The notes beneath the pieces are model-generated. The model made no database searches, had not been told where the DNA came from, and saw nothing but the letters and a program-made list of their open reading frames with translations. From Acidobacteriota bacterium (GTDB lineage Bacteria; Acidobacteriota; UBA6911; RPQK01; JADFOI01), in NCBI GenBank assembly GCA_963663035.1, contig OY760074.1:3520001-3584000 (forward strand): a stretch of 64,000 nt of DNA, in the 5' to 3' direction. Position numbers and translations under genes: made by a program. Within the stretch, counting starts at the first letter, position 1. Each line of letters starts with the position of its first letter. This document shows, piece after piece, positions 400-58,541 of this stretch.

Positions 400-1305
400 C
401 TATGCTAGACCCGGGACCATTTGAAGTCCACTCCAAGGGATTGGATCCAGTGCCTGCGACCTAGGTAGTTTGGCCTCTGGCGCCGGCGGCCGATAGGCCA
501 AGGCGCTGTGAGGCCGGATCTGATTGTAATCCCTCCGCCAGCGTTCTACCAACACCTTGGCTTCCCCCAGCGTGTCGAAGATCTCCATGTTCAGCAGCTC
601 ATCCCGTAGTTTCCCGTTGAAACTCTCAATGTACCCATTCTCCCAGGGGCTGCCCGGCTCGATGTACAAGGTCCTTACCCCAACAGCCTGCAGCCAGTCC
701 CGGACCGCCTGTGCCGTAAACTCCGATCCGTTATCGGACCGGATAAACTCAGGCACTCCCCGATCAACGAATAACTCCGCCAGCCGGTCCAACACGTCTT
801 GGTGATTCATCTGCCGTTTCACATCAATGGCGAGGCACTCTCTGGTGTACTCATCCAGGATCGTCAATAGCCGAAAGGCTCGCCCATCATGGGTCCGTTC
901 ATGCACGAAATCATAGCTCCAGACGTGGTTCTTGCGAGCCGCTCGTAACCGAACACAGGAACCGTCATTAAGCCACAGCCTCCTTCGTTTCGGCTGTCTG
1001 GACGGGACTTTCAGCCCTTCTTGTCTCCACAGCCTCTCCACCCGCTTAGGATTCACCTTCCACCCTTCCCCATGAAGTATCGCCGTGACCCGCCGGTAGC
1101 CATAACGCCCGTATTGCGTAGCCAACTCCACCATCCGGGCCACCAATCGGGCCTCATCATCGGGAATTTGCCTTTCCCTTCGCTGGGTCGATCGAACCTG
1201 TCCCAGCACTTGGCAGGCCCGACGTTCGGAGACTCGCTCTGCTCCTAATCGCTCTCGTACCCACATCACCGCTCGTCTCCTGTTCGCCGGGCCTAGAAGT
1301 TTCCC
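400..1305 (-). CDS. IS3 OrfB, DDE transposase domain (expressed as OrfAB through a -1 frameshift)
   Basis: RYGYRR, WSYDF, SDNGSEF and [10 protein letters not shown] motifs; slippery heptamer G GGA AAC at 1305-1299 just before the orfA stop. Confidence 0.92.
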
Positions 1306-1571
1306 GAGGACACTTCCTTCAGGATCTGCTTGTCCAAAGACAGATCCGCCACCAGCTTCTCCAACCGGGTATTCTCCTTCTCCAACACCTTCAACCTCTT
1401 GGCCTGGTCCAACCGGAGCCCTCCGTACTCTTTGCGCCACCGGTAGTAGGTCTGCTCGCTCACCCCCATCTGCTTCGACACCTGTCCCACCCTCTGTCCT
1501 TGGGCCAGACCCACCTCTGCCTCACGCAGCTTCATGATGATCTGTTCTGCCCTAAACCGCTTCCCTGCCAT
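1293..1571 (-). CDS. IS3 OrfA, helix-turn-helix protein
   Basis: [19 protein letters not shown] plus leucine-zipper LEKENTRL; RBS AGGAGG upstream. Confidence 0.92.
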
Positions 1572-1637: not shown

Positions 1638-3365
1638 ACTGCCGTTGCGCTGATCGAGCCCGATCCTGGGGACTACATGATCGGGGTCATCGGCACACCG
1701 GGAGAGCCCTTCTCGCTGTCCGCGTCGGTAGCCGATTTTCTGGGCAACGTCGAGGTTCCCCGCGTGGTCGAATTCCGGGCCGATGGCATTCTGGCGCCGG
1801 GCGGCAATGCATTTGATTTCGAGATCCGCCTGCGTTCTGGCGCCCCCGGCAGCGGGGCGATGCGTGCTGGCTTCGACGAAGCGACCTTGCCCGCCAACGA
1901 CGATGGGTCGACCGGCCTGGTCCCGATCGGGTTTACGGCTGACCTCTTCGGTACGCTTTTTGACTCAGTCTTCGTCAACAACAACGGCAACCTGACACTG
2001 GATGCGCCGCTGTCGACCTTCACGCCCTTCGATCTGACCTCGACAGGACGCGAGATTATCGCCCCCTATTTTGCTGATGTCGACACGCGCGTCGGCAATG
2101 TATTGACCTTCGGCAACGGCATTGTCGGAGGTCGGCCCGCTTTTGGAGTGACGTGGCCGGGAGTCGGGTGCTTTTCCGTTACCACATCGGTGCTCAACTT
2201 CTTCCAGGTCGTGCTGATCGACCGTTCTGATCTTGGACCGGGCGATTTCGACATTGAATTCAACTTCGATTCCATCCAATGGGAGACTGGCCAGGCCAGC
2301 GGCGGCGACGTCGTTTGCCAAGGCGGGGCTTCGGCCCGAGTCGGCTTCTCGAGCGGTACCGGCGACCCTGCGACCTTCTTCGAACTACCCGGATCAGGCA
2401 TCCCCGGAGCATTTCTCGATAACAACGCCGTCACGGGACTCGCCAATAACAGCTTCAACAGCCAGCAGATGGGACGCTATTTCTTTGCGGTGCGTAACGG
2501 TATGCCTGTCACCCAGGCCGACCGAGACCGGGACGGGGTTCCCGACGAGTTGGACAACTGCCCCAACACATCCAACCCGGATCAGGCGGACGGAGAACTG
2601 AACGGGATCGGCGACGCGTGCCAGAGCCCCGATCAACTGCATGCGACTTCCGGTGTCCTGCAGGCGCTGCTGGACGGGACGACTACGGGAGAACGTCGCG
2701 GCCTGACTGTGGCAGATGAACCAGGCCTCCTCGAACGGGTTGTGCGAATAGTGGACTTTCGCCTCAGAGAGGGTCTAGCTGATTCGGCAGAACAACTTAC
2801 CGCGAACCTGGTGGGCAGTCTCGTTGAAACCGGCTTGGTATCGCCGGAAGATGCAGACCAGCTCATTAGAGACGTGCTCCAACAAATCTTGACTCCGTTC
2901 GCCGCTTTCGCCGTCGATGTCGAAATTGAGGAGGACGAATTCGAGGTCGAGGGGAGCTTCACCCTTGGCCAGAGCAGCGATGGCATCAACCCTGTGACTG
3001 AGGATGTGAGCCTTCAGGTGGGGCCCTTCACCACCACCATCCGGGCCGGTTTCTTCGAGTTGACCAACTCCGGTCCGTTCGGGGAGTTCGAGTTCGAAGG
3101 GGTCATCCAGGGCGTGGATCTGGAGATTGAGATCCGGCCGCTTTGGGGCAACAACTTTAGGTTCGAGGCCGAAGGAGAGGGGGCGGATATGTCCGGGACG
3201 GTGAACCCGGTGACCGTGGTGCTCATCGTCGGAAACGACGGTGGCGAGGTCACCGTCGAGGCCGAAATAGAGAGGGACGACGACGGTGATGATGATGATG
3301 ATGATGATGACGATGATGACGATGACGATGACGGTCCTACTATCATCACCGTTGGAAGCCGTTGA
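1638..3365 (+). CDS. Acidic surface/secreted protein with nidogen-like (NIDO) domain, thrombospondin type-3 Ca-binding repeat and poly-Asp tail; N-terminus truncated by IS3
   Basis: FVNNNGNLT, IIAPYFADVDTR and NFFQVVLIDR NIDO-type motifs; DRDRDGVPDELDNCPNTSNPDQADGELNGIGDAC TSP3 motif; frame is open from the IS end (1638) through ATG 1677. Confidence 0.7.
   Translation, partial: TAVALIEPDPGDYMIGVIGTPGEPFSLSASVADFLGNVEVPRVVEFRADGILAPGGNAFDFEIRLRSGAPGSGAMRAGFDEATLPANDDGSTGLVPIGFTADLFGTLFDSVFVNNNGNLTLDAPLSTFTPFDLTSTGREIIAPYFADVDTRVGNVLTFGNGIVGGRPAFGVTWPGVGCFSVTTSVLNFFQVVLIDRSDLGPGDFDIEFNFDSIQWETGQASGGDVVCQGGASARVGFSSGTGDPATFFELPGSGIPGAFLDNNAVTGLANNSFNSQQMGRYFFAVRNGMPVTQADRDRDGVPDELDNCPNTSNPDQADGELNGIGDACQSPDQLHATSGVLQALLDGTTTGERRGLTVADEPGLLERVVRIVDFRLREGLADSAEQLTANLVGSLVETGLVSPEDADQLIRDVLQQILTPFAAFAVDVEIEEDEFEVEGSFTLGQSSDGINPVTEDVSLQVGPFTTTIRAGFFELTNSGPFGEFEFEGVIQGVDLEIEIRPLWGNNFRFEAEGEGADMSGTVNPVTVVLIVGNDGGEVTVEAEIERDDDGDDDDDDDDDDDDDDDGPTIITVGSR
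3276..3331 (+). repeat. GAT/GAC trinucleotide tract encoding poly-Asp
   Basis: gacgacgacggtgatgatgatgatgatgatgatgacgatgatgacgatgacgatgac. Confidence 0.95.
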
Positions 3366-7484: not shown

Positions 7485-7729
7485 GTCGTGAGGGAGTCGA
7501 GAAGAGAGCAGAAAGCGCTTTAACTTTTCTCGGTCAACAGGCTGTGCTCACTTTGATCTTGCTCCAAACAGAAGGAGAGAGGATAATAGCGTCTGGGTTT
7601 TCAAGGACCAACGGGGAAGAGAAGTGTCTCTATCTCGAGAGTCTGTAGCGGCTTGAGAAGTGATGGGATCTCAAATCGCCCAAGTAAGGAACCTCCTGTC
7701 ATGAAACTGTGCCATACTGAAAAGCGATA

Positions 7730-8758
7730 ATGTTCAACCTCCGCTCAATCTTCAGTTATTTTTCAGATGATCTCGCCATCGACTTGGGTACCGCCAATAC
7801 CCTGGTTTATGCCCGAGGGCAGGGAATCGTTGTTAACGAACCTTCCATTGTCGCGATCAATAAGTTGAGCAACAAGATCGAGGCGATCGGGCATGAGGCC
7901 AAGGACATGCTGGGCCGAACACCGGGCAATATTGTTGCCATCAAGCCCATGAAGGATGGAGTGATAGCGGATTTCGATATCACCGAAGAGATGCTGAAAT
8001 ACTTCATCAAAAGAGCTCATAATCGGAATCACTTACTGAGTCCCAGAATCGTCATTTGTATTCCTTCCGAGATCACTCAGGTCGAGAAAAGGGCGGTCAG
8101 AGAGTCGGCTCTCAGGGCCAATGCCAGCGAGGTCTATCTGCTGGAAGAGGCAATGGCTGCTGCCATTGGCGCTGGACTTCCCATTACCGAACCGGGGGGG
8201 AACTTGATCGTGGACATCGGAGGAGGAACCACCGATATCGCTGTCATCAGTCTGTCCGGCCAGGTTTACAGCCGTTCAGTCCGGGTTGCGGGAAATGAAA
8301 TGGATGAGTCCATCATCCAGTACATCAAAAGAAAGCACAATTTGCTGATCGGGGAACGCACGGCTGAGCAGGTGAAAATCCAGATTGGTTCGGCTGCACC
8401 ACTGGATGAAAAGCTGACCATGGAAATCAAGGGGCGCGATCTAATCGAAGGGATCCCCAAGACCATTGTCATCACAGATGAAGAAGTGTGCGAGGCCTTG
8501 TCCGATACCATGGACATCATCGTGAATGCCGTGCGGGTGGCCTTGGAACGGACACCTCCCGAACTCTCCGCCGACATTGTGGATAAGGGTGTGGTCGTGA
8601 CCGGAGGCGGAGCCCTTCTCAAGAACCTGGATGTGAGAATGAAGAATGAAACAGGACTTCCCATCTTTTTAGCGGAAGATCCTCTTTCCTCGGCAGTCCT
8701 GGGAACGGGCAAGATGTTGGACGACATCCCACTTCTGAAAAGAATCAGCATGCAATGA
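7730..8758 (+). CDS. mreB: Rod shape-determining protein MreB
   Basis: AIDLGTANT and IVDIGGGTTD actin-like ATPase motifs. Confidence 0.98.
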   Translation: MFNLRSIFSYFSDDLAIDLGTANTLVYARGQGIVVNEPSIVAINKLSNKIEAIGHEAKDMLGRTPGNIVAIKPMKDGVIADFDITEEMLKYFIKRAHNRNHLLSPRIVICIPSEITQVEKRAVRESALRANASEVYLLEEAMAAAIGAGLPITEPGGNLIVDIGGGTTDIAVISLSGQVYSRSVRVAGNEMDESIIQYIKRKHNLLIGERTAEQVKIQIGSAAPLDEKLTMEIKGRDLIEGIPKTIVITDEEVCEALSDTMDIIVNAVRVALERTPPELSADIVDKGVVVTGGGALLKNLDVRMKNETGLPIFLAEDPLSSAVLGTGKMLDDIPLLKRISMQ

Positions 8759-20608: not shown

Positions 20609-21436
20609 TTATCCTCTTTTGATCTGCGTTCCCTCTTTCCCTCTCACTCCCTCCAACAACGCATTCTCCTTCAACCCACTCAAGATCTGTACTGAACCCA
20701 CTCCTCCCTCCAGGACCCTGAGTGCGGTCTGGACCTTGGGCACCATACCGTCAGTTAGACCTCCCTGGCTCAACAAATCCTTGGCCTCGGTGGCACTCAA
20801 CTCAGAAATACAGCTGGAGGCATCGTGAATGTCCCGGTAGATTCCCTCCACGTCTGAAACGGAAATCAGTTGGCTCGCCTGCAGGCTGATGGCCAGTTCA
20901 GCAGCCAGCGTGTCGGCATTGATGTTGAGGATTTGGCCGTCTTTGTCGGCACCCAGGCAGCTCACCACGGGAAGGAAGCCGCTGTCCCAGAATTGCTGCA
21001 AAACAGACGTGTCAATACTGTCAATCTCTCCCACCAGCCCAAAATCAATCAGCTCGGCATGCTCATGGCCGGAGGAGTCGGTGGTCGTAATCGAGAGAGG
21101 CGGCCTTCTGTGGCAGCAAGTCAGCCTGGCATCGAAGGCTGAGATTCCTAAGGCCGACAAACCCAAGGCAACCAGATCCGCAACCAGATTGCGATTCATG
21201 GCAGAGAAGACCATGGTGGCCAGCTCCAGCGTGGCCTTGTCGGTGACACGGCGCCCCTGATGCTGGACGATCGGTATCCCCAGACGGTTGGACAGATTGG
21301 TCAGCTGTTTTCCTCCGCCGTGGACAACGATCAAACGGTGACCGTCTCGGTCCAACTGGACCAGCTGTCGGCACAGGTGGCCTCGCGGTTTGTCCTCCTC
21401 CAAGACCTTTCCACTCAGCTTGACCACCAGGATCAT
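20609..21436 (-). CDS. argB: Acetylglutamate kinase
   Basis: VVKLSG, VVHGGG, NINAD and GMVPK amino-acid kinase motifs; clustered with argC/argD. Confidence 0.88.
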   Translation of the reverse strand: MILVVKLSGKVLEEDKPRGHLCRQLVQLDRDGHRLIVVHGGGKQLTNLSNRLGIPIVQHQGRRVTDKATLELATMVFSAMNRNLVADLVALGLSALGISAFDARLTCCHRRPPLSITTTDSSGHEHAELIDFGLVGEIDSIDTSVLQQFWDSGFLPVVSCLGADKDGQILNINADTLAAELAISLQASQLISVSDVEGIYRDIHDASSCISELSATEAKDLLSQGGLTDGMVPKVQTALRVLEGGVGSVQILSGLKENALLEGVRGKEGTQIKRG

Positions 21437-22590
21437 ATGGTCTTGACGGCCTCCACAAAGAGATCGGCTTCACTTCGTTTCAGGACCAGAGGCGGCATCA
21501 GACGCAGGACCTGGGCATCCATTGAGGTCCCGGCCAGAATGTGCTTTTCGAGGAGCGCCCCCTGCAGTTCCTTGGCCGTCATTTTTTCACCCAATTTTAG
21601 ACCCAACAGAAGTCCCCGGCCCCGCACTTCCTCAACGTGGTCAATGCCGGCAAGAGCTTCCTTCAGATAGACGCCCATCAGGCTAGCGTGTTTGGCCAGC
21701 TCTTCCCTTTCGATGACCTCCAGCGTGGCTTCCATGGCGGCGCACCCCAGGGGGCCACCCCCAAACGTGCTGCCCAGGTCGCCGCTTCTGACCGTTCTGG
21801 CCAGCTTTTCGGTCACAAGCAGAGCACCCGCGGGAAAACCCGAGGCGATCCCTTTGGCTAAAGTCACCATGTCAGGATGAATCTTGAGGTGTCCGGAGAA
21901 GAGAAAGGATCCGGTTCGTGCCACTCCTGTTTGCACCTCATCAAAGATCAGGAGTGCTCCATGGTCTTGGCAGACCTCCTGGATCTGGCTCAGACAGTCC
22001 AGAGGGATCTCCTGCATTCCCCCCATGCTCTGAATCGGTTCGATCAGGACAGCTGCCGTTTTCTCAGAGACGGCAGCTGCCACTCCTGCTGCGGGCAGGA
22101 TCCGATGCATGGGCACCGGTGTGTTCAGGTAATCGAGATACTTGGGGATCCCGGTGCTGGAGAGACTGCCGTAGGTGCGACCATGAAAGGAGCCGGAGAG
22201 GGAAATGACTTCGCGGCGTCCAGTGGTGGCTCGCGCCAGCTTGATGGCGTTCTCATTGGCCTCGCTGCCAGAGGTGACCAGGAATGCCTGGTAGTAGGGT
22301 TCACCGGCCATCTCCAGCAACTTTTTCACCGCTCGCGCTCTAGCCCGGTTGTAGCTGACATTGGAGTAGAAAATCAGCTGGGCAGCCTGTTCTTGAATGG
22401 CTTGAACAACATGGGGATGGCAGTGACCTGTTGAGGCCACCGCATGAGCGCCGTAGAGATCAAGATATTGGGTTCCTTCCTGATCATAAACGTAGCACCC
22501 CTCACCTTTCTCGATGAAGAGAGGAAACTTGGCGTAGGTTTGCAGCTGATACCGGTCCTCGTAGCTCTTCAGGTCATCTACTGTCGTCAT
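21433..22590 (-). CDS. argD: Acetylornithine aminotransferase (class III PLP)
   Basis: FHGRT, IFDEVQTG, TLAKG and STFGG motifs. Confidence 0.88.
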   Translation of the reverse strand: MTTVDDLKSYEDRYQLQTYAKFPLFIEKGEGCYVYDQEGTQYLDLYGAHAVASTGHCHPHVVQAIQEQAAQLIFYSNVSYNRARARAVKKLLEMAGEPYYQAFLVTSGSEANENAIKLARATTGRREVISLSGSFHGRTYGSLSSTGIPKYLDYLNTPVPMHRILPAAGVAAAVSEKTAAVLIEPIQSMGGMQEIPLDCLSQIQEVCQDHGALLIFDEVQTGVARTGSFLFSGHLKIHPDMVTLAKGIASGFPAGALLVTEKLARTVRSGDLGSTFGGGPLGCAAMEATLEVIEREELAKHASLMGVYLKEALAGIDHVEEVRGRGLLLGLKLGEKMTAKELQGALLEKHILAGTSMDAQVLRLMPPLVLKRSEADLFVEAVKTI

Positions 22591-22639
22591 GGTTGGTCAC
22601 CGCTTTGCTGGATTCGTGCTTTCCTGCATTCGTGCACCC

Positions 22640-23650
22640 CTAAGGGTGCACGGGGGCTGTCTCCAGGCCTGTCTCCTCAGGAAAGTCGCAAATCAGGTTC
22701 ATATTTTGAACGGCCTGACCGGCGGCACCCTTTTGCAGATTATCCAACACCGACCAGACAATGAGAAAGCCATTTTGAGTTGCGGCGCCGATGTCTACGA
22801 AATTGGAGTGACGAACGAAGCTCACATTGGGAGATCCGGAGACCCAGCGAATAAAGAAATCTGAACCGTAGTAGGTTTCATACAGGTTGGCCACTTCCTC
22901 GGTGGTCACCGACTTGGCCAACTCCATGTAGTGGCTGGCGAAGATTCCACGCACGAACGGAGCCGAGTAGGTCTGAAAGATCAACGGGTAGTCGGGCTCA
23001 CCCAGGAGCTGTGTAATCTCGGGAAGATGCTGGTGCGCAAAAGGCTTGTAGGCGAACAGGCTGTTGGTGCGCCAGGGATGATGGGTGGTGGCGCCCGGAG
23101 AGTTTCCAGCTCCCGAGGAACCCGTTTTGGTATCGACGTAGACGGGTCCCTGGATCCACTTCTCCTGAAAAAGCGGATAGAGTGCCAGGAGTGTGGCACT
23201 GGCAAAGCAGCCTGGATTGGCAATGCGCCGAGCCGAGCGGATTTCTTCCCGCTTCAGTTCCGTGAGTCCGTAAACGAAGGCCTTCTGCTCCTCGGGGCAG
23301 TGGGGCGGAAAGCTGTAGAATTTCTCAAACACTTCGGGGTCTGCCAGCCGAAAATCACCGCTCAGATCGATGACCACCAGCTCGCCGGGCAGTTCCGGCA
23401 CCAGCTTCATCGCTTCCCCGTGGGGCAAAGCCAGAAACAGGACATCCAGCTGTGAAGCGGGCAGCTCCTCCAAAGGCGAGAAACGGAGCTTCAGCACCCC
23501 GCGCAAGTGTGGATAGACGCTTGCGACTTCTTTTCCGGCATGTTGTTGGGAGGAGATCCAAGCGATCGTGACATCGGGGTGACGCAGGAGAATTTGAATG
23601 AGCTCAATGCCTCCGTAGCCCGAACCGCCGGCTATTCCGATTTGAGCCAT
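22640..23650 (-). CDS. argC: N-acetyl-gamma-glutamyl-phosphate reductase
   Basis: GGSGYGG, IANPGCF, GSSGAG and DNLQKGAAGQAVQNMN motifs. Confidence 0.95.
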   Translation of the reverse strand: MAQIGIAGGSGYGGIELIQILLRHPDVTIAWISSQQHAGKEVASVYPHLRGVLKLRFSPLEELPASQLDVLFLALPHGEAMKLVPELPGELVVIDLSGDFRLADPEVFEKFYSFPPHCPEEQKAFVYGLTELKREEIRSARRIANPGCFASATLLALYPLFQEKWIQGPVYVDTKTGSSGAGNSPGATTHHPWRTNSLFAYKPFAHQHLPEITQLLGEPDYPLIFQTYSAPFVRGIFASHYMELAKSVTTEEVANLYETYYGSDFFIRWVSGSPNVSFVRHSNFVDIGAATQNGFLIVWSVLDNLQKGAAGQAVQNMNLICDFPEETGLETAPVHP

Positions 23651-24717
23651 GGCATCAGAGTCTCTAGAACGAAAGTGCAGATCGTGCCCGTGCCTTCCCG
23701 AGAATTGCCTGCCGGAAGGTCCCAGTGTTCCTCAATGTAACGTATGCCTTCCCCACTGTCCGTGACAGGTCCTGAAATGAGAATCGGATACTTCCTGGGA
23801 CCTTGCTTGGACAACCACTCCATAGCTCCCCACACACCCATCAAGTCATTGGCGCACACGATCATCGATACGCAGCAGCTCATGAATTGTTCATCTTCAA
23901 AGAGGGAGGCAACCTGATAGCCTCCCAGGACTCCGTCACCCATCTCCAGAACAATGAAGTCAGGGTGGGACTCGGACAGATAGTGCACCATGGAGCGGGC
24001 GATGGGGACAACGGTTTCCAGATGGGCCGTGGAAGGTATGCCGAAGTCCTGAAAGCTCAGAATTTTTTGAGCGCCGTTTTCCTTCATGGCCAGAGGGTCT
24101 TTCAAGCAACCTACCCCGGCAACTTTTCCAGCGTTGATGGAAAACCCCTTATCAGTGAACATCTTCAGGAGTTGTTGGCAAACGGCGGTTTTCCCGGCGT
24201 TCATGCAGGTCCCCACAACCATGACTACCGGAACCTCCAGGATGGGCTTATCGACTAGAGCGAGAGCGAAGTCTTTCAGATTAGCAGCTCGGCCGTTCCA
24301 GGAAACGGTGCCCAGGTACTCCAGTTGGGTGGGCCATCCTAAATCGCGATGGAAATCCGTGCATTCTCCTATGACACCACCCCGATTGAGCAGGTGAAGC
24401 TCCATGCCTGCCTTGAGCTCAGAGGGAGGATCGCCTGAAAATCCTTGCAGGGCTTTGCGGCTTCCCAAGGCTCCAATGATCAATTCTCCTCCACTCAGAG
24501 TCTCCTCCTCCCCATCCAGTGTTTCCAGCTTCGAATAGTCGGTATTGACCTTCTTGACTTTTACCAGGACCAGGTCCCCGTGATGGGCGGTCTTCTCCTC
24601 TGTCACCCTGAGAAGTCCGGCAAGGGGAACTCGACTGGTCACGGAGGCGATCAGATCAGGTCTGACTCCTTCAGGCTTTGAGGCAGATGTGGGATCGACT
24701 AAGACTTTAACTTGCAT
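23632..24717 (-). CDS. DUF1611/DgcN-like P-loop protein, first gene of the arg operon
   Basis: VGTCMNAGKT P-loop-like motif, GKVAGVG, FQDFGIPST and LEMGDG; start MQVKVLV at 24717 after GAGGT; overlaps argC start. Confidence 0.65.
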   Translation of the reverse strand: MQVKVLVDPTSASKPEGVRPDLIASVTSRVPLAGLLRVTEEKTAHHGDLVLVKVKKVNTDYSKLETLDGEEETLSGGELIIGALGSRKALQGFSGDPPSELKAGMELHLLNRGGVIGECTDFHRDLGWPTQLEYLGTVSWNGRAANLKDFALALVDKPILEVPVVMVVGTCMNAGKTAVCQQLLKMFTDKGFSINAGKVAGVGCLKDPLAMKENGAQKILSFQDFGIPSTAHLETVVPIARSMVHYLSESHPDFIVLEMGDGVLGGYQVASLFEDEQFMSCCVSMIVCANDLMGVWGAMEWLSKQGPRKYPILISGPVTDSGEGIRYIEEHWDLPAGNSREGTGTICTFVLETLMPWLKSE

Positions 24718-24745
24718 GGTTGACCTCGCTGAACGTTTCTTCCAG

Positions 24746-24763
24746 AGTGCATAATTATACATA
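24746..24763. promoter_or_regulatory. ARG box (ArgR operator)
   Basis: AGTGCATAATTATACATA fits WNTGNATWWWWATNCANW; a second half-site AGTGAATA lies at 24768-24775. Confidence 0.8.
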
Positions 24764-24781
24764 GTTTAGTGAATATGTCAA
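24754..24781 (-). promoter_or_regulatory. Sigma70 promoter of the arg operon
   Basis: TTGACA-N16-TATAAT on the minus strand, overlapping the ARG box. Confidence 0.85.
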
Positions 24782-29139: not shown

Positions 29140-30660
29140 GCCGCAATTATTCATAAGTTTGGGGTGAGTGTCGATTTTCTGCGGAAGTTCAGGGCTGAGA
29201 GTGTGTTCAGGTGCGATTACAAGGCGTCCAAGCTTGTTGAGCCGAATAGAGATGAAGCGAGAGCCCCTTCCGGAAACAGCTCGGCCCGCAGGGGGCTGTA
29301 TATCTGTGTTGGCGCAGGGAGTCAGGGGACCGTCAGGTGGGACACAGACGGTGCATCAGTAATGCGAAGAGCTTTTGTTCGGGATAAGACGATGCCAGGT
29401 GCACCCAGATGCGACGAGAAGTTTCCCGAACCCGGGCACCGATTTTGAACAGGCGGCGGCGGAGCGTCTCAATCTCCAGGTTGTGCCAGGGAGTCCCGCA
29501 CAGGTAATCCCGCAGGCGCAGGATTAAGACATAGGCCAGGGCGTGGATGAAGAGTCGGAACTGGTTGGCCAGGAAACGGTGGCAGCTCAAGCGATCCATG
29601 GCCAGATCTTTTTTGAAAGCTTTCACGAAGTTCTCGCACTGGCCCCGTCCGATGTAGTGGTCATACAGCTGCCCGGCCGTGAGATCCTGGCGGTTGGTGA
29701 CCACAAAGCGACGGTTGAACCCGCGCTCGCTCACTTCCACCTTGGCCACCATGCGCCGCTCCCGGTCCCAACTGTCGGCCTGATAGACGAGCTCGGTGAA
29801 CTGGCGTTGCTTTTCTCCTGAGTCGTCATAGTCTGCTTGCACCTGCTCAACCAAGGGCTCGACGGTGGCCGCCAGCCGGGAGTTGCGGGCAAAGCCCACC
29901 ACATACTGCAGTTTTTCCTCCTCACAGAACTCGTACAGTGCCGGCGTCGCAAAGCCACTGTCGGCTCGCACTTCGATCGGAACATCGGATCCCAGAACCT
30001 GGCGCATCCGGGCCACCACCCGTTTGAGAACCGCCACCGCGTGGACGGCCGCCCCCTGGTTGCCGGGCCGCAGTAGCGCACATACCAGATCGCCCGTCTC
30101 GCCATCGAATAGCAACAGCGGATGATACATGTGCTCGCGATAATAGCCGTGGTAAAAGCTGAACTCCTGCTGCCCATGCGTGACGTCATCCGTGCTGTCG
30201 ATGTCCAGGATGATCTTCTCGGGCCGGCTCTTCTTGCGGTGCTTCAAGTAGGTCTCCAGCAGCCACTGTCCCAGGCGAGTGAGATCCTTCGAGTCCACCG
30301 AGTTCTCCAGTCGCGACAGCGTGGGTTGAGAAGCCAGATCCGGATCGCTTTCCGGCAGCCGATCACACACGGTCTTGAAGATGGGATCCGAGCGCAAGCT
30401 GTCGGCATCGTTGCAGTCCTCATAGCCGGCCACGATCTGAAAGCTGCGCTGGGTGAGCAGTTCGCGAATCTGGTGGCGGACGTAGCGGCTATCTCGAGCG
30501 TCCTTCAGGCAGGAGGCAAAGCCAGCCGTCAGTCCGTGCTGTTGATCCAGGGCGTACAGACACAGCAGCCCGGCATCGGAGGAGAGCCGGCCTCCATCGA
30601 ATCGAGCCACCACTTTTCTGTCAGGGTGAGATGGCAAGTTGATCTGGCAGACTGATGCAT
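29140..30660 (-). mobile_element. IS1380-family element lacking its 5' end
   Basis: Terminus GCCGCAATTATTCATAAG at ~29140; transposase runs directly into pyk coding sequence with no second terminus visible. Confidence 0.85.
29333..30637 (-). CDS. IS1380-family transposase (DDE_Tnp_1_4), native start apparently lost
   Basis: FDGGRLSSDAGL, LASQPTLSRLEN, LDIDST, VRADSGF, RGQCEN and FLANQFRL motifs. Confidence 0.92.
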   Translation of the reverse strand: MPSHPDRKVVARFDGGRLSSDAGLLCLYALDQQHGLTAGFASCLKDARDSRYVRHQIRELLTQRSFQIVAGYEDCNDADSLRSDPIFKTVCDRLPESDPDLASQPTLSRLENSVDSKDLTRLGQWLLETYLKHRKKSRPEKIILDIDSTDDVTHGQQEFSFYHGYYREHMYHPLLLFDGETGDLVCALLRPGNQGAAVHAVAVLKRVVARMRQVLGSDVPIEVRADSGFATPALYEFCEEEKLQYVVGFARNSRLAATVEPLVEQVQADYDDSGEKQRQFTELVYQADSWDRERRMVAKVEVSERGFNRRFVVTNRQDLTAGQLYDHYIGRGQCENFVKAFKKDLAMDRLSCHRFLANQFRLFIHALAYVLILRLRDYLCGTPWHNLEIETLRRRLFKIGARVRETSRRIWVHLASSYPEQKLFALLMHRLCPT

Positions 30661-52156: not shown

Positions 52157-52708
52157 ATGCCAGCCAGAATGATTATCGCCATGTTGGCGGCACTGCTAAT
52201 TCCAATCTCTGCTTACCCTCAGGACGTTAATTCACAGTTGATTGAAGCGGCGAAGAGAGGTGACACGGTCAGTATAAAGGCCCTGCTCGAGGCGGGAGCC
52301 GACGTGAACGCTGAAGATGGCGACGGCGCGACAGCCTTGATATTGGCGGCACAAAAAGGTCACGCTGAACCCGCTCAGGCCCTGCTTACTGCCGGGGCCG
52401 ACGTGAGCGCGTGGGATAGGTTGTACGAAACGACGGCTTTAGGGTGGGCGGCAGAAGGAGGTCACAGGGAAACCGTTCAGGCCTTGCTCGATGCCGGGGC
52501 CGACGTGAACGCGAAGGATGGCTACGGAGAGACGGGCTTGATGTCGGCGGCACGAAACAATCACAGGGAAACCGTTCAGGCCCTGCTCAATGCCGGGGCC
52601 GTCGTGAACGCGAAGGGTGAGGACGGCAAAACGGCGTTGATGACTGTCGAGGAGTTGGGTCACGCCGAAATCGTCGAGATGCTCAAGAAGGCGGGGGCGA
52701 AGGAATAG
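52157..52708 (+). CDS. Secreted ankyrin-repeat protein
   Basis: Signal peptide; about five G.TAL..AA..GH...V.ALL.AGADVN repeats; AGGAGG RBS. Confidence 0.93.
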   Translation: MPARMIIAMLAALLIPISAYPQDVNSQLIEAAKRGDTVSIKALLEAGADVNAEDGDGATALILAAQKGHAEPAQALLTAGADVSAWDRLYETTALGWAAEGGHRETVQALLDAGADVNAKDGYGETGLMSAARNNHRETVQALLNAGAVVNAKGEDGKTALMTVEELGHAEIVEMLKKAGAKE

Positions 52709-57277: not shown

Positions 57278-58541
57278 CCTGCCCCCACGAACGAGTCCAC
57301 CCTCTATGCTAGACCCGGGACCATTTGAAGTCCACTCCAAGGGATTGGATCCAGTGCCTGCGACCTAGGTAGTTTGGCCTCTGGCGCCGGCGGCCGATAG
57401 GCCAAGGCGCTGTGAGGCCGGATCTGATTGTAATCCCTCCGCCAGCGTTCTACCAACACCTTGGCTTCCCCCAGCGTGTCGAAGATCTCCATGTTCAGCA
57501 GCTCATCCCGTAGTTTCCCGTTGAAACTCTCAATGTACCCATTCTCCCAGGGGCTGCCCGGCTCGATGTACAAGGTCCTTACCCCAACAGCCTGCAGCCA
57601 GTCCCGGACCGCCTGTGCCGTAAACTCCGATCCGTTATCGGACCGGATAAACTCAGGCACTCCCCGATCAACGAATAACTCCGCCAGCCGGTCCAACACG
57701 TCTTGGTGATTCATCTGCCGTTTCACATCAATGGCGAGGCACTCTCTGGTGTACTCATCCAGGATCGTCAATAGCCGAAAGGCTCGCCCATCATGGGTCC
57801 GTTCATGCACGAAATCATAGCTCCAGACGTGGTTCTTGCGAGCCGCTCGTAACCGAACACAGGAACCGTCATTAAGCCACAGCCTCCTTCGTTTCGGCTG
57901 TCTGGACGGGACTTTCAGCCCTTCTTGTCTCCACAGCCTCTCCACCCGCTTAGGATTCACCTTCCACCCTTCCCCATGAAGTATCGCCGTGACCCGCCGG
58001 TAGCCATAACGCCCGTATTGCGTAGCCAACTCCACCATCCGGGCCACCAATCGGGCCTCATCATCGGGAATTTGCCTTTCCCTTCGCTGGGTCGATCGAA
58101 CCTGTCCCAGCACTTGGCAGGCCCGACGTTCGGAGACTCGCTCTGCTCCTAATCGCTCTCGTACCCACATCACCGCTCGTCTCCTGTTCGCCGGGCCTAG
58201 AAGTTTCCCGAGGACACTTCCTTCAGGATCTGCTTATCCAAAGACAGATCCGCCACCAGCTTCTTCAACCGGGTATTCTCCTTCTCCAACACCTTCAACC
58301 TCTTGGCCTGGTCCAACCGGAGCCCTCCGTACTCTTTGCGCCACCGGTAGTAGGTCTGCTCGCTCACCCCCATCTGCTTCGACACCTGTCCCACCCTCTG
58401 TCCTTGGGCCAGACCCACCTCTGCCTCACGCAGCTTCATGATGATCTGTTCTGCCCTAAACCGCTTCCCTGCCATCCTTGCCTCCTTCCTAAACCGGAAA
58501 TCCTAACATTCAAACTGGACTCGTTTTAGGGGGCAAGGTCA
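57275..58541 (-). mobile_element. IS3-family insertion sequence, copy 2 (orfA 58197-58475, orfB from 57304)
   Basis: Same termini and length as copy 1; two substitutions noticed (58236 and 58265); no target duplication. Confidence 0.95.

Follow-up and report, generated by a model that had tools for sequence, protein, structure and literature searches.

The first step of arginine synthesis and geneX

Which enzyme carries out the first step of arginine synthesis in a genome where none of the known ones is found? Many bacterial genomes seem to lack this enzyme, a long-standing gap in pathway reconstruction, and the question is raised again by a 64,000-nucleotide (nt) stretch of an Acidobacteriota genome (contig OY760074.1, positions 3,520,001 to 3,584,000; hereafter the window), in which four tightly packed genes in the order geneX-argC-argD-argB lie on the minus strand at 20609-24781. 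Analysis of this locus and its relatives indicates that geneX, which encodes a two-domain P-loop protein of an unnamed family, probably performs this step, i.e., the N-acylation of L-glutamate, leaving aside the acyl donor. The candidate N-acyl-L-glutamate synthase would be a replacement for ArgA and ArgJ that is neither a GNAT enzyme nor an ArgJ, and would feed ArgB, ArgC and ArgD from one ArgR-repressed transcript.

The head gene geneX (23632-24717) encodes 361 amino acids (aa) from an ATG at 24717, with GAGG located 6 nt 5′ of this start. An upstream ATG at 24762 was rejected as the start, since it sits within the operon promoter and the alignment with relatives begins only near residue 17, so that the length of about 361 aa is correct. 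An earlier note on this DNA, made from the sequence alone, had described a P-loop-like protein of this size with the stretches GTCMNAGKT, GKVAG and LEMGDG, all of which are present in the translation, and had placed it in front of argC, argD and argB. In line with this, geneX overlaps argC by 19 nt (23632-23650), and both argC (22640-23650) and argB, encoding the N-acylglutamate kinase (20609-21436), pass the cut-offs of NCBIfam equivalog models (TIGR01850, 366.1 bits, cut-off 233.6; TIGR00761, 203.3 bits, cut-off 151.3). The intervening argD (21433-22590) overlaps argB by 4 nt and codes for a class III acyl-ornithine aminotransferase (PF00202, 327.8 bits), the nearest models being acetylornithine/succinylornithine class III aminotransferases. 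The locus offers a clean four-gene operon under putative ArgR control that is convenient for cloning.

Known step-1 enzymes

The genome is a single contig of 96.6% completeness and encodes argB, argC, argD, argF, argG, argH and argR. Neither ArgJ nor a classical ArgA was found in it, the only match to the ArgA model being argB, and LysW was not found either. Searches of the genome for short GNAT-type ArgA proteins gave no match to the mycobacterial-type model NF005921 and only generic GNAT matches of 17-19 bits to NF005840. The absence of argA and argJ from the window, remarked on in the earlier note, was borne out by a Pfam scan of the 47 other open reading frames (ORFs), none of which has an ArgJ or GNAT domain. 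A literature search on a missing N-acetylglutamate synthase in Acidobacteria gave no relevant paper among those listed.

Based on these sequence comparisons, geneX is a well-supported best candidate for the missing step. It would hold the same place in pathway and regulon as ArgA and ArgJ, and its proposed reaction is that of ArgA, but it shows no sequence or fold relation to ArgA, which consists of a GNAT and an amino-acid-kinase domain, or to ArgJ, an ornithine acetyltransferase.

Distribution of geneX, ArgJ and argC

The distribution of the family was analyzed in 201 genomes of the phylum, which include the unpublished genomes G024, G049 and G152. The geneX family profile matches 56 of them in two score groups, one at or above 355.8 bits (47 genomes) and one at or below 270.7 bits, and the upper group is referred to as arg-type (threshold 355 bits). 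argC is present in 111 genomes and ArgJ in 47, and classical ArgA exceeds its cut-off in a single genome, which is without arg-type geneX. The 111 argC genomes comprise 47 with arg-type geneX, 47 with ArgJ, 17 with neither and none with both; argC was found in all 94 genomes that carry arg-type geneX or ArgJ. Thus, the anticorrelation with argA and argJ that the earlier note had envisaged is seen throughout the 47 arg-type genomes.

Clustering of homologs with arg genes, also envisaged there, is seen as well. Among the 29 non-self 4-kb loci of the phylum, argC directly adjoins geneX in 28 (27 of 28 without L010, from the unpublished G024), and 18 of 18 arg-type 19-kb loci are arginine clusters. 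Fifteen of these 18 neighborhoods are whole clusters with the order argR-argG-geneX-argC-argD-argF′-argB, argF′ being an argF-like gene, at times accompanied by an M20 gene and argH. We favor the step-1 role because no other reading both completes the pathway and explains the synteny, the membership in the regulon and the exclusion of ArgJ. If true, the GNAT enzyme or ArgJ of the textbooks is replaced by a P-loop enzyme in 47 of the 111 argC genomes of this sample and in members of several other phyla, and predictions of auxotrophy in uncultured bacteria from soil and sediment would be corrected.

Several observations weigh against this assignment. The genomes are related and hence non-independent, so that no statistical test was applied, and the 355-bit threshold was set after the gap between 355.8 and 270.7 bits had been seen. 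In G171, the exception among the 29 loci, geneX and argC lie on separate contigs. The 17 argC genomes without geneX and ArgJ also need to be accounted for, and four were inspected. Two have argC in lysine-type contexts, beside a LysX-type ATP-grasp gene in G010 (L078, G010:C298) and beside an isocitrate/isopropylmalate-type dehydrogenase gene, with no LysX or LysW seen, in G004 (L077, G004:C1); the argC counts therefore slightly overstate the number of arginine pathways. G053 has an eroded second arginine cluster (L076, G053:C29:1-9000) with a geneX remnant of about the 70 first residues, argD in two short pieces and a partial argG, and another argC elsewhere in the genome. G181 is a genuine exception: it carries an intact argC-argD-argF′-argB cluster preceded by mlaE/ABC/mlaD genes (L075, G181:C1:334000-346000), and geneX was not detected at any place in the 98% complete assembly, whereas four congeneric genomes carry the gene.

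Moreover, ArgJ also supplies step 5, so that the anticorrelation alone leaves ambiguous which step is replaced. geneX could take over the other ArgJ function, as an acyl-cycling transferase or deacylase that acts on N-acyl-ornithine or N-acyl-citrulline, perhaps handing the acyl group back to glutamate, while an unrecognized enzyme primes step 1. ArgJ being bifunctional, the 47/47/0 pattern fits either function; in addition, 10 of the 15 argF′ clusters inspected show no M20 deacylase within 19 kb, and this genome encodes no dedicated ArgE over the cut-off. However, geneX lies upstream of and is translationally coupled to argC instead of standing beside the late genes, and five loci (L048, L049, L052, L054 and L057) contain geneX together with an ArgE/DapE-type M20 gene, which argues for different jobs. 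We also know of no precedent for a P-loop fold acting as an amidohydrolase, and the genome would still be without step 1. We regard acyl cycling as highly improbable and retain N-acylation of L-glutamate as the probable function of geneX.

The low-scoring homologs occur in 9 genomes, 2 of them with ArgJ and 6 without argC. Two of these paralogs were inspected (L061:8940-10172 and L062:9002-10015, on the minus and plus strand, respectively), and both lie outside arginine clusters. One of the two is flanked by 7TM-transglutaminase/ATP-grasp, HlyD-like and YheC/D ATP-grasp genes, and the other is barely over the DUF1611_C cut-off (26.2 bits).

Promoter and putative ArgR operator

The operon is preceded by the −35 hexamer TTGACA (24776-24781, minus strand) and, after a 16-nt spacer, the −10 hexamer TATAAT (24754-24759, minus strand), which together match the sigma-70 consensus at 12 of 12 positions, as the earlier note had read it. 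Perfect TTGACA-N16-18-TATAAT sites occur six times on the two strands of the 3.59-Mb genome, compared to 0.6 expected from base composition. The ARG box that the note had placed over the −10 box corresponds to a 16-bp ARG-box-like palindrome, ATGTATAATTATGCAC (24747-24762, no strand assigned), which overlaps the −10 hexamer and is a putative ArgR operator.

A near twin of this palindrome, ATGTATAAATATACAT (G000:C1:1807393, G000 being this genome), covers the −10 box of the second arginine operon, argR-argG-argH-argF (G000:C1:1803395-1807388), whose promoter reads TTGACA-N17-TATAAA. ATGTATAATTATGCAC and ATGTATAAATATACAT are the sole sites in the 3.59 Mb with at most one mismatch to the palindrome pattern, a count that is circular in that the pattern was built from these same two sites. 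The four-gene operon is shared by two relatives in different families of the order (L058 and L059), which carry TTGTATAAATATGAAT and TTGTATAAATATGCAT at the corresponding position. The genome also encodes an ArgR homolog, which scores 116.4 bits, under the cut-off of 130.45. Based on the palindromes over the −10 boxes of both arginine operons and on the boxes in the relatives, ArgR control of the geneX operon is plausible and a sound reading of the sequence.

A palindrome with two mismatches at C1:2800612 was rejected as an ARG box, as it appears to be an ATGCAT-repeat operator of another kind: the region G000:C1:2800590-2800640 holds a series of ATGCAT-bearing palindromes directly before a small ORF and resembles the operator of another regulator. 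A further 16-mer, ATGTCTATTTACACAC, is found at about 23 sites of the genome (e.g., G000:C1 5588, 7549, 64876 and 267789), none of them in the operon region, and presumably belongs to a dispersed repeat or an insertion sequence (IS).

Domains, motifs and family

No Pfam or NCBIfam model exceeds its cut-off on geneX, and the weak P-loop matches are to MobB, DUF1611_C, AAA_26 and CobQ. An AlphaFold2 model based on a 67-member alignment has two confident domains (pLDDT 94.7). Residues 1-156 (24250-24717, minus strand) are predicted to form an all-beta domain with conserved S25, E65, G85, R87, G95 and P98, and residues 157-361 (23632-24249, minus strand) are assigned by the model and by profile comparison to a SIMIBI-type P-loop alpha/beta domain. 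The latter contains the Walker A motif GTCMNAGKT (residues 169-177; 24187-24213, minus strand), in which G175 is invariant and K176 and T177 are at least 90% conserved. A second lysine, K198 (24124-24126, minus strand), follows 22 residues past the Walker lysine within the family consensus K-L-T-G-V-A, is conserved in at least 90% of the 67 members and lines up with the ‘KP’ lysine of BioD, the dethiobiotin synthetase. E258 (23944-23946, minus strand) is an invariant Glu at the end of the LEMGDG strand; its counterpart in DUF1611 is the Glu of the ‘EGQG’ motif, which is likewise invariant.

The family is large, with 1145 representatives in a 50%-identity library at E≤1e-3, 727 at ≤1e-10 and 94 at ≤1e-30. 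Its named members are annotated as hypothetical proteins and come from Acidobacteriota, Chloroflexota, Planctomycetota, Balneolales and Sumerlaeota, with no Steroidobacter among the source names, and one UniRef relative is labeled ‘DUF1611 domain-containing’. A single-protein scan of genome contigs gave at least one geneX locus, L002, from a Myxococcales metagenome-assembled genome (40% identity), and look-alike clusters in the Atlas, which serve as a lead only, are mostly from Pseudomonadota.

One library protein, P0146 (626 aa), combines a geneX homolog (38% identity) with an ArgB-like kinase, a fusion that would fit consecutive pathway steps. It is, however, a single, N-terminally truncated record without DNA, and no longer fusion came up when such forms were searched for, a negative that counts as weak evidence. 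Two distant relatives are fused to other domains, P0197 (939 aa) to a methyltransferase and a TauD dioxygenase and P0258 (503 aa) to a response-regulator receiver domain.

The N-terminal domain folded alone (pLDDT 88.3) matched no solved structure, the best hits being the LexA C-domain in VIA-align (Z 3.2) and one with E 0.44 in Foldseek; this null search of a model does not establish a new fold. With the P-loop domain, Foldseek puts signal recognition particle (SRP) GTPases first and DgcN (7XRJ), a DUF1611 protein, at rank 4 (E 1.1e-5, root-mean-square deviation (rmsd) 5.6), followed by BioD and HypB. VIA-align of model residues ∼160-355 gives 2g0t (Z 16.1), BioD 3of5 (15.7), 2obn (15.4), 7xrj (15.0), BioD 1a82 (14.8), UreG (14.0), HypB (13.5) and formyltetrahydrofolate (formyl-THF) synthetase (12.6), so that, as far as the model goes, DUF1611 proteins and BioD are tied in their nearness to this domain.

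Several of these neighbors raise the question of whether geneX catalyzes a step at all. It could be an accessory SIMIBI NTPase without catalysis of its own, i.e., a regulator, a scaffold, a metal-delivery factor in the manner of UreG, HypB or MeaB, or a sensor of arginine or N-acylglutamate. UreG, HypB, MeaB-like MMAA and the SRP GTPases among the structural neighbors would agree with such a role, as would the receiver domain on P0258 and the low-scoring paralogs outside arginine clusters. On the other hand, step 1 would be left without a candidate though all other steps are present, the exclusion of ArgJ would be unexplained, and the conserved, family-specific beta domain with its invariant Arg and Glu resembles a substrate-binding domain. 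An accessory function appears quite improbable to us, and we continue with geneX as the likely step-1 enzyme.

Acyl-CoA transfer or ATP-dependent ligation

The earlier note had called the head gene DUF1611/DgcN-like and the DUF1611 family one that includes DgcN. The latter is correct: a PDB search with a DUF1611 profile, built from nine true DUF1611 proteins of the same phylum, identifies DgcN (7XRJ, titled N-acetyltransferase) as a DUF1611 protein with E 1.3e-64. The former holds in part. DUF1611_C (PF07755) scores 12.4 bits on geneX, below its cut-off of 25, and matches weakly in just 14 of 67 family members, and the DUF1611 N-terminal domain (PF17396) matches neither geneX nor any of 67 relatives. 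Alignment of the DUF1611 and geneX profiles by hhalign gives a probability of 92.7% (E 4.4e-7) over 183 columns, in the P-loop domain only (positions 146-346). The relation emerged only by hhalign and structure comparison and not by a profile search of PDB sequences, in which BioD was matched (E 1.9e-4) and no DUF1611 chain was among the 38 matches. Remote homology of the geneX P-loop domain to DUF1611_C is likely on these profile comparisons, and the label is valid for this one domain at the superfamily level only, the N-terminal domain being predicted as all-beta and probably unrelated.

Like geneX, DgcN and other DUF1611 proteins (PF07755 plus PF17396; 2G0T, 2OBN) have two domains, a length of ∼340-360 aa and a C-terminal SIMIBI P-loop domain. 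The GTxxxxGK(x)T and E-G-x-G motifs align, the superposition extends over ∼180 residues (VIA Z 15.0-16.1), and DgcN N-acylates glutamate, as proposed for geneX. The substrates would differ, as DgcN acetylates D-glutamate with acetyl-CoA and geneX would use L-glutamate in a biosynthetic pathway. Literature searches on DgcN and DUF1611 found no paper on the mechanism of DgcN. BioD (3OF5, 1A82, 3FGN) shares the P-loop superposition (Z 14.6-15.7), the GT....GKT spacing of Walker A and a second lysine at +22, which aligns with K198 in an alignment to M. tuberculosis BioD (3FGN) and which we take to be catalytic. In contrast to geneX with its extra 156-aa beta domain, BioD is a single domain of ∼220-230 aa; AAA_26 reaches 12.2 bits on geneX (cut-off 27), and geneX lacks a biotin context.

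We tentatively read geneX as an acyl-CoA:L-glutamate N-acyltransferase, by analogy to DgcN. In this reading, the nucleotide end of the acyl-CoA would be bound by the P-loop domain, following DgcN, and glutamate by the beta domain via the conserved R87 and E65; the donor would most likely be succinyl-CoA, less likely acetyl-CoA. Several points weigh against such a transfer: the link to DgcN is no stronger than that to the ATP-dependent BioD (VIA Z 15.0-16.1 versus 15.7), SRP GTPases rank first in Foldseek, and the all-beta N-terminal domain is unaligned with the DUF1611 N-terminal region in hhalign. Furthermore, geneX has K-L-T-G where DUF1611 proteins have A-T-G-Q-T-G, so that the BioD-type lysine K198 is replaced by Ala at the same spacing in the three solved structures 2OBN, 2G0T and 7XRJ, and the DUF1611 consensus built here shows no lysine at this position.

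The same features suggest that geneX might instead work as a ligase driven by ATP, in the manner of BioD, CobQ or formyl-THF synthetase. In that case, free succinate or acetate would first be phosphorylated and its acyl group then transferred onto the L-glutamate amino group, with no part for acyl-CoA. The tie of the P-loop domain with dethiobiotin synthetase, the PDB profile search and the position of K198 on the ‘KP’ lysine point in this direction, as do the conserved K176, T177 and strand-end E258, and formyl-THF synthetase, an ATP-dependent N-acylating enzyme, is among the structural matches. Yet Walker A and the Glu are also conserved in DUF1611 and hence do not discriminate, a lysine at position 198 could equally bind CoA phosphates or a succinyl carboxylate, and the only characterized glutamate-N-acylating relative, DgcN, is named an acetyltransferase. 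We consider a ligase rather unlikely, and acyl-CoA transfer is slightly favored over it.

A more specific version, to which we give a low probability, has geneX as an ATP-dependent succinate:L-glutamate ligase in which a P-loop domain of the BioD type is combined with a beta domain that has no solved relative. It would start an undescribed pathway topology in which succinyl intermediates lead to N-succinyl-ornithine, a DapE/ArgE-type desuccinylase shared with lysine synthesis releases free ornithine, and a canonical ornithine carbamoyltransferase (OTC) follows. The BioD-type lysine and the unmatched N-terminal domain offer a direct means of testing whether acyl-CoA or ATP is used. If geneX does fill step 1, the SIMIBI P-loop fold would gain a catalytic role that is new for it.

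Acyl group, carbamoyltransferase and deacylase

The argF-like proteins of the clusters pass the acyl-ornithine carbamoyltransferase model NF003384 in 5 of 5 cases tested (380-427 bits, cut-off 288) and fail OTC models. In PDB variants of the Xanthomonas carbamoyltransferase, chain residue 112 is E in 3KZC and P in 3L04. Assuming a 20-residue tag, we infer that this is position 92, described as an acetyl/succinyl switch in a preprint (10.1101/2024.10.14.618325) that, in its passages on this switch, takes A, P, S and V at this position to mark a succinyl-type enzyme and reports 70 ArgF′ proteins of this type. In 15 cluster ArgF′ proteins the corresponding column holds A in 8, T in 3, P in 2 and V and S in 1 each (A/P/S/V in 12 of 15), and E in none. 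Judged by this residue, the relatives with ArgF′ look to use succinyl-type and not N-acetyl intermediates. The earlier note's proposal that the head gene performs step 1 is supported by comparative genomics (no known enzyme, 28/29 synteny, 47/47/0), but its N-acetyl part is not, as the relatives point to N-succinyl.

ArgF′ exceeds its cut-off in 36 of the 47 geneX genomes. None was found in the other 11, namely this genome, a further nine from the order and G063 from the same class, all of which have a canonical OTC. A 41-genome sample of the order includes 36 genomes with geneX, 12 of them with and 24 without ArgF′; 22 of these 24 have an OTC, and the two without it are split over 650 and 950 contigs. 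The genome studied here has only a canonical OTC, which scores 385 bits with NF001986 (cut-off 306), and ArgF′ was not found, i.e., this lineage has lost the succinylornithine carbamoyltransferase common to most related clusters. Accordingly, the acyl group cannot be read from ArgF′ here, which further weakens the case for a succinyl donor; by orthology with the ArgF′ clusters we still regard succinyl as the somewhat more probable acyl group in this genome.

With a canonical OTC and no ArgF′, the pathway must go through free ornithine and requires an N-acyl-ornithine deacylase. The candidate is the only ArgE/DapE-type M20 hydrolase of the genome (G000:C1:1702669-1703775), which would release free ornithine for the OTC of the argR-argG-argH-argF operon. 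Within the order, orthologs of this hydrolase, tabulated by eye, occur in all 24 geneX genomes that lack ArgF′, in 3 of the 12 that have it and in 2 of 5 genomes without geneX. As the genome also has a DapD-like gene (201.9 bits), the M20 protein may be DapE, ArgE or both. Four other M20 proteins of the genome were rejected as deacylase since they are not ArgE/DapE-like. At G000:C1 ∼1704578-1706309, an acyl-CoA ligase appears to be split into two overlapping ORFs for its N- and C-terminal halves (L042:6579-7610 and 7510-8310, both on the minus strand), which may reflect a frameshift or a sequencing error.

An earlier prediction for what is probably the same family

The step-1 role itself is not new. 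The GapMind 2026 preprint (10.1101/2024.10.14.618325) proposes a role as alternative N-succinylglutamate synthase for the Steroidobacter denitrificans protein ACG33_RS14135 (A0A127FCT3), a prediction for which it reports no experiment and which it reached independently of our analysis; the suggestion in the earlier note of an undescribed variant does not stand in this respect. As judged by shared hallmarks with the family as it is described in the preprint's passages on it, and not by sequence, geneX very probably belongs to this family. Both are hypothetical proteins encoded in arginine clusters with argB, argC, argD, argF′, argG, argH, argR and sometimes argE, and both exclude the usual step-1 enzyme (here 0 of 47 with ArgJ). 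Both also have a weak Foldseek match to DgcN 7XRJ, with rmsd 5.6 Å and E 1.4e-7 in the preprint and rmsd 5.6 and E 1.1e-5 here. The succinyl-type residue at ArgF′ position 92 is common to the preprint family and the geneX relatives and is not shared by this genome, which has no ArgF′.

Unlike the ACG33_RS14135 clusters described there, the cluster of this genome and its close relatives is limited to geneX-argC-argD-argB, and a second operon encodes a canonical OTC, so that the preprint's succinyl argument is not directly applicable to this lineage. The separate N-terminal domain and the BioD-type lysine are not mentioned in its Appendix 2 and its passages on the family. New here are a pathway variant that lacks ArgF′ and is linked to an OTC, a promoter with an ARG box whose design is conserved, the lysine of BioD type and the N-terminal domain without structural match.

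Other features of the window

Three further ORFs of the window (400-1440, 57304-58173 and 29333-30637, all on the minus strand) comprise two with near-identical rve-integrase domain scores, suggesting copies of one IS element, and a DDE_Tnp_1_4 transposase. Moreover, the window encodes an ankyrin-repeat protein (52157-52708, plus strand) and a protein with a NIDO (nidogen-like) domain (1677-3365, plus strand), each uncommon in bacteria.

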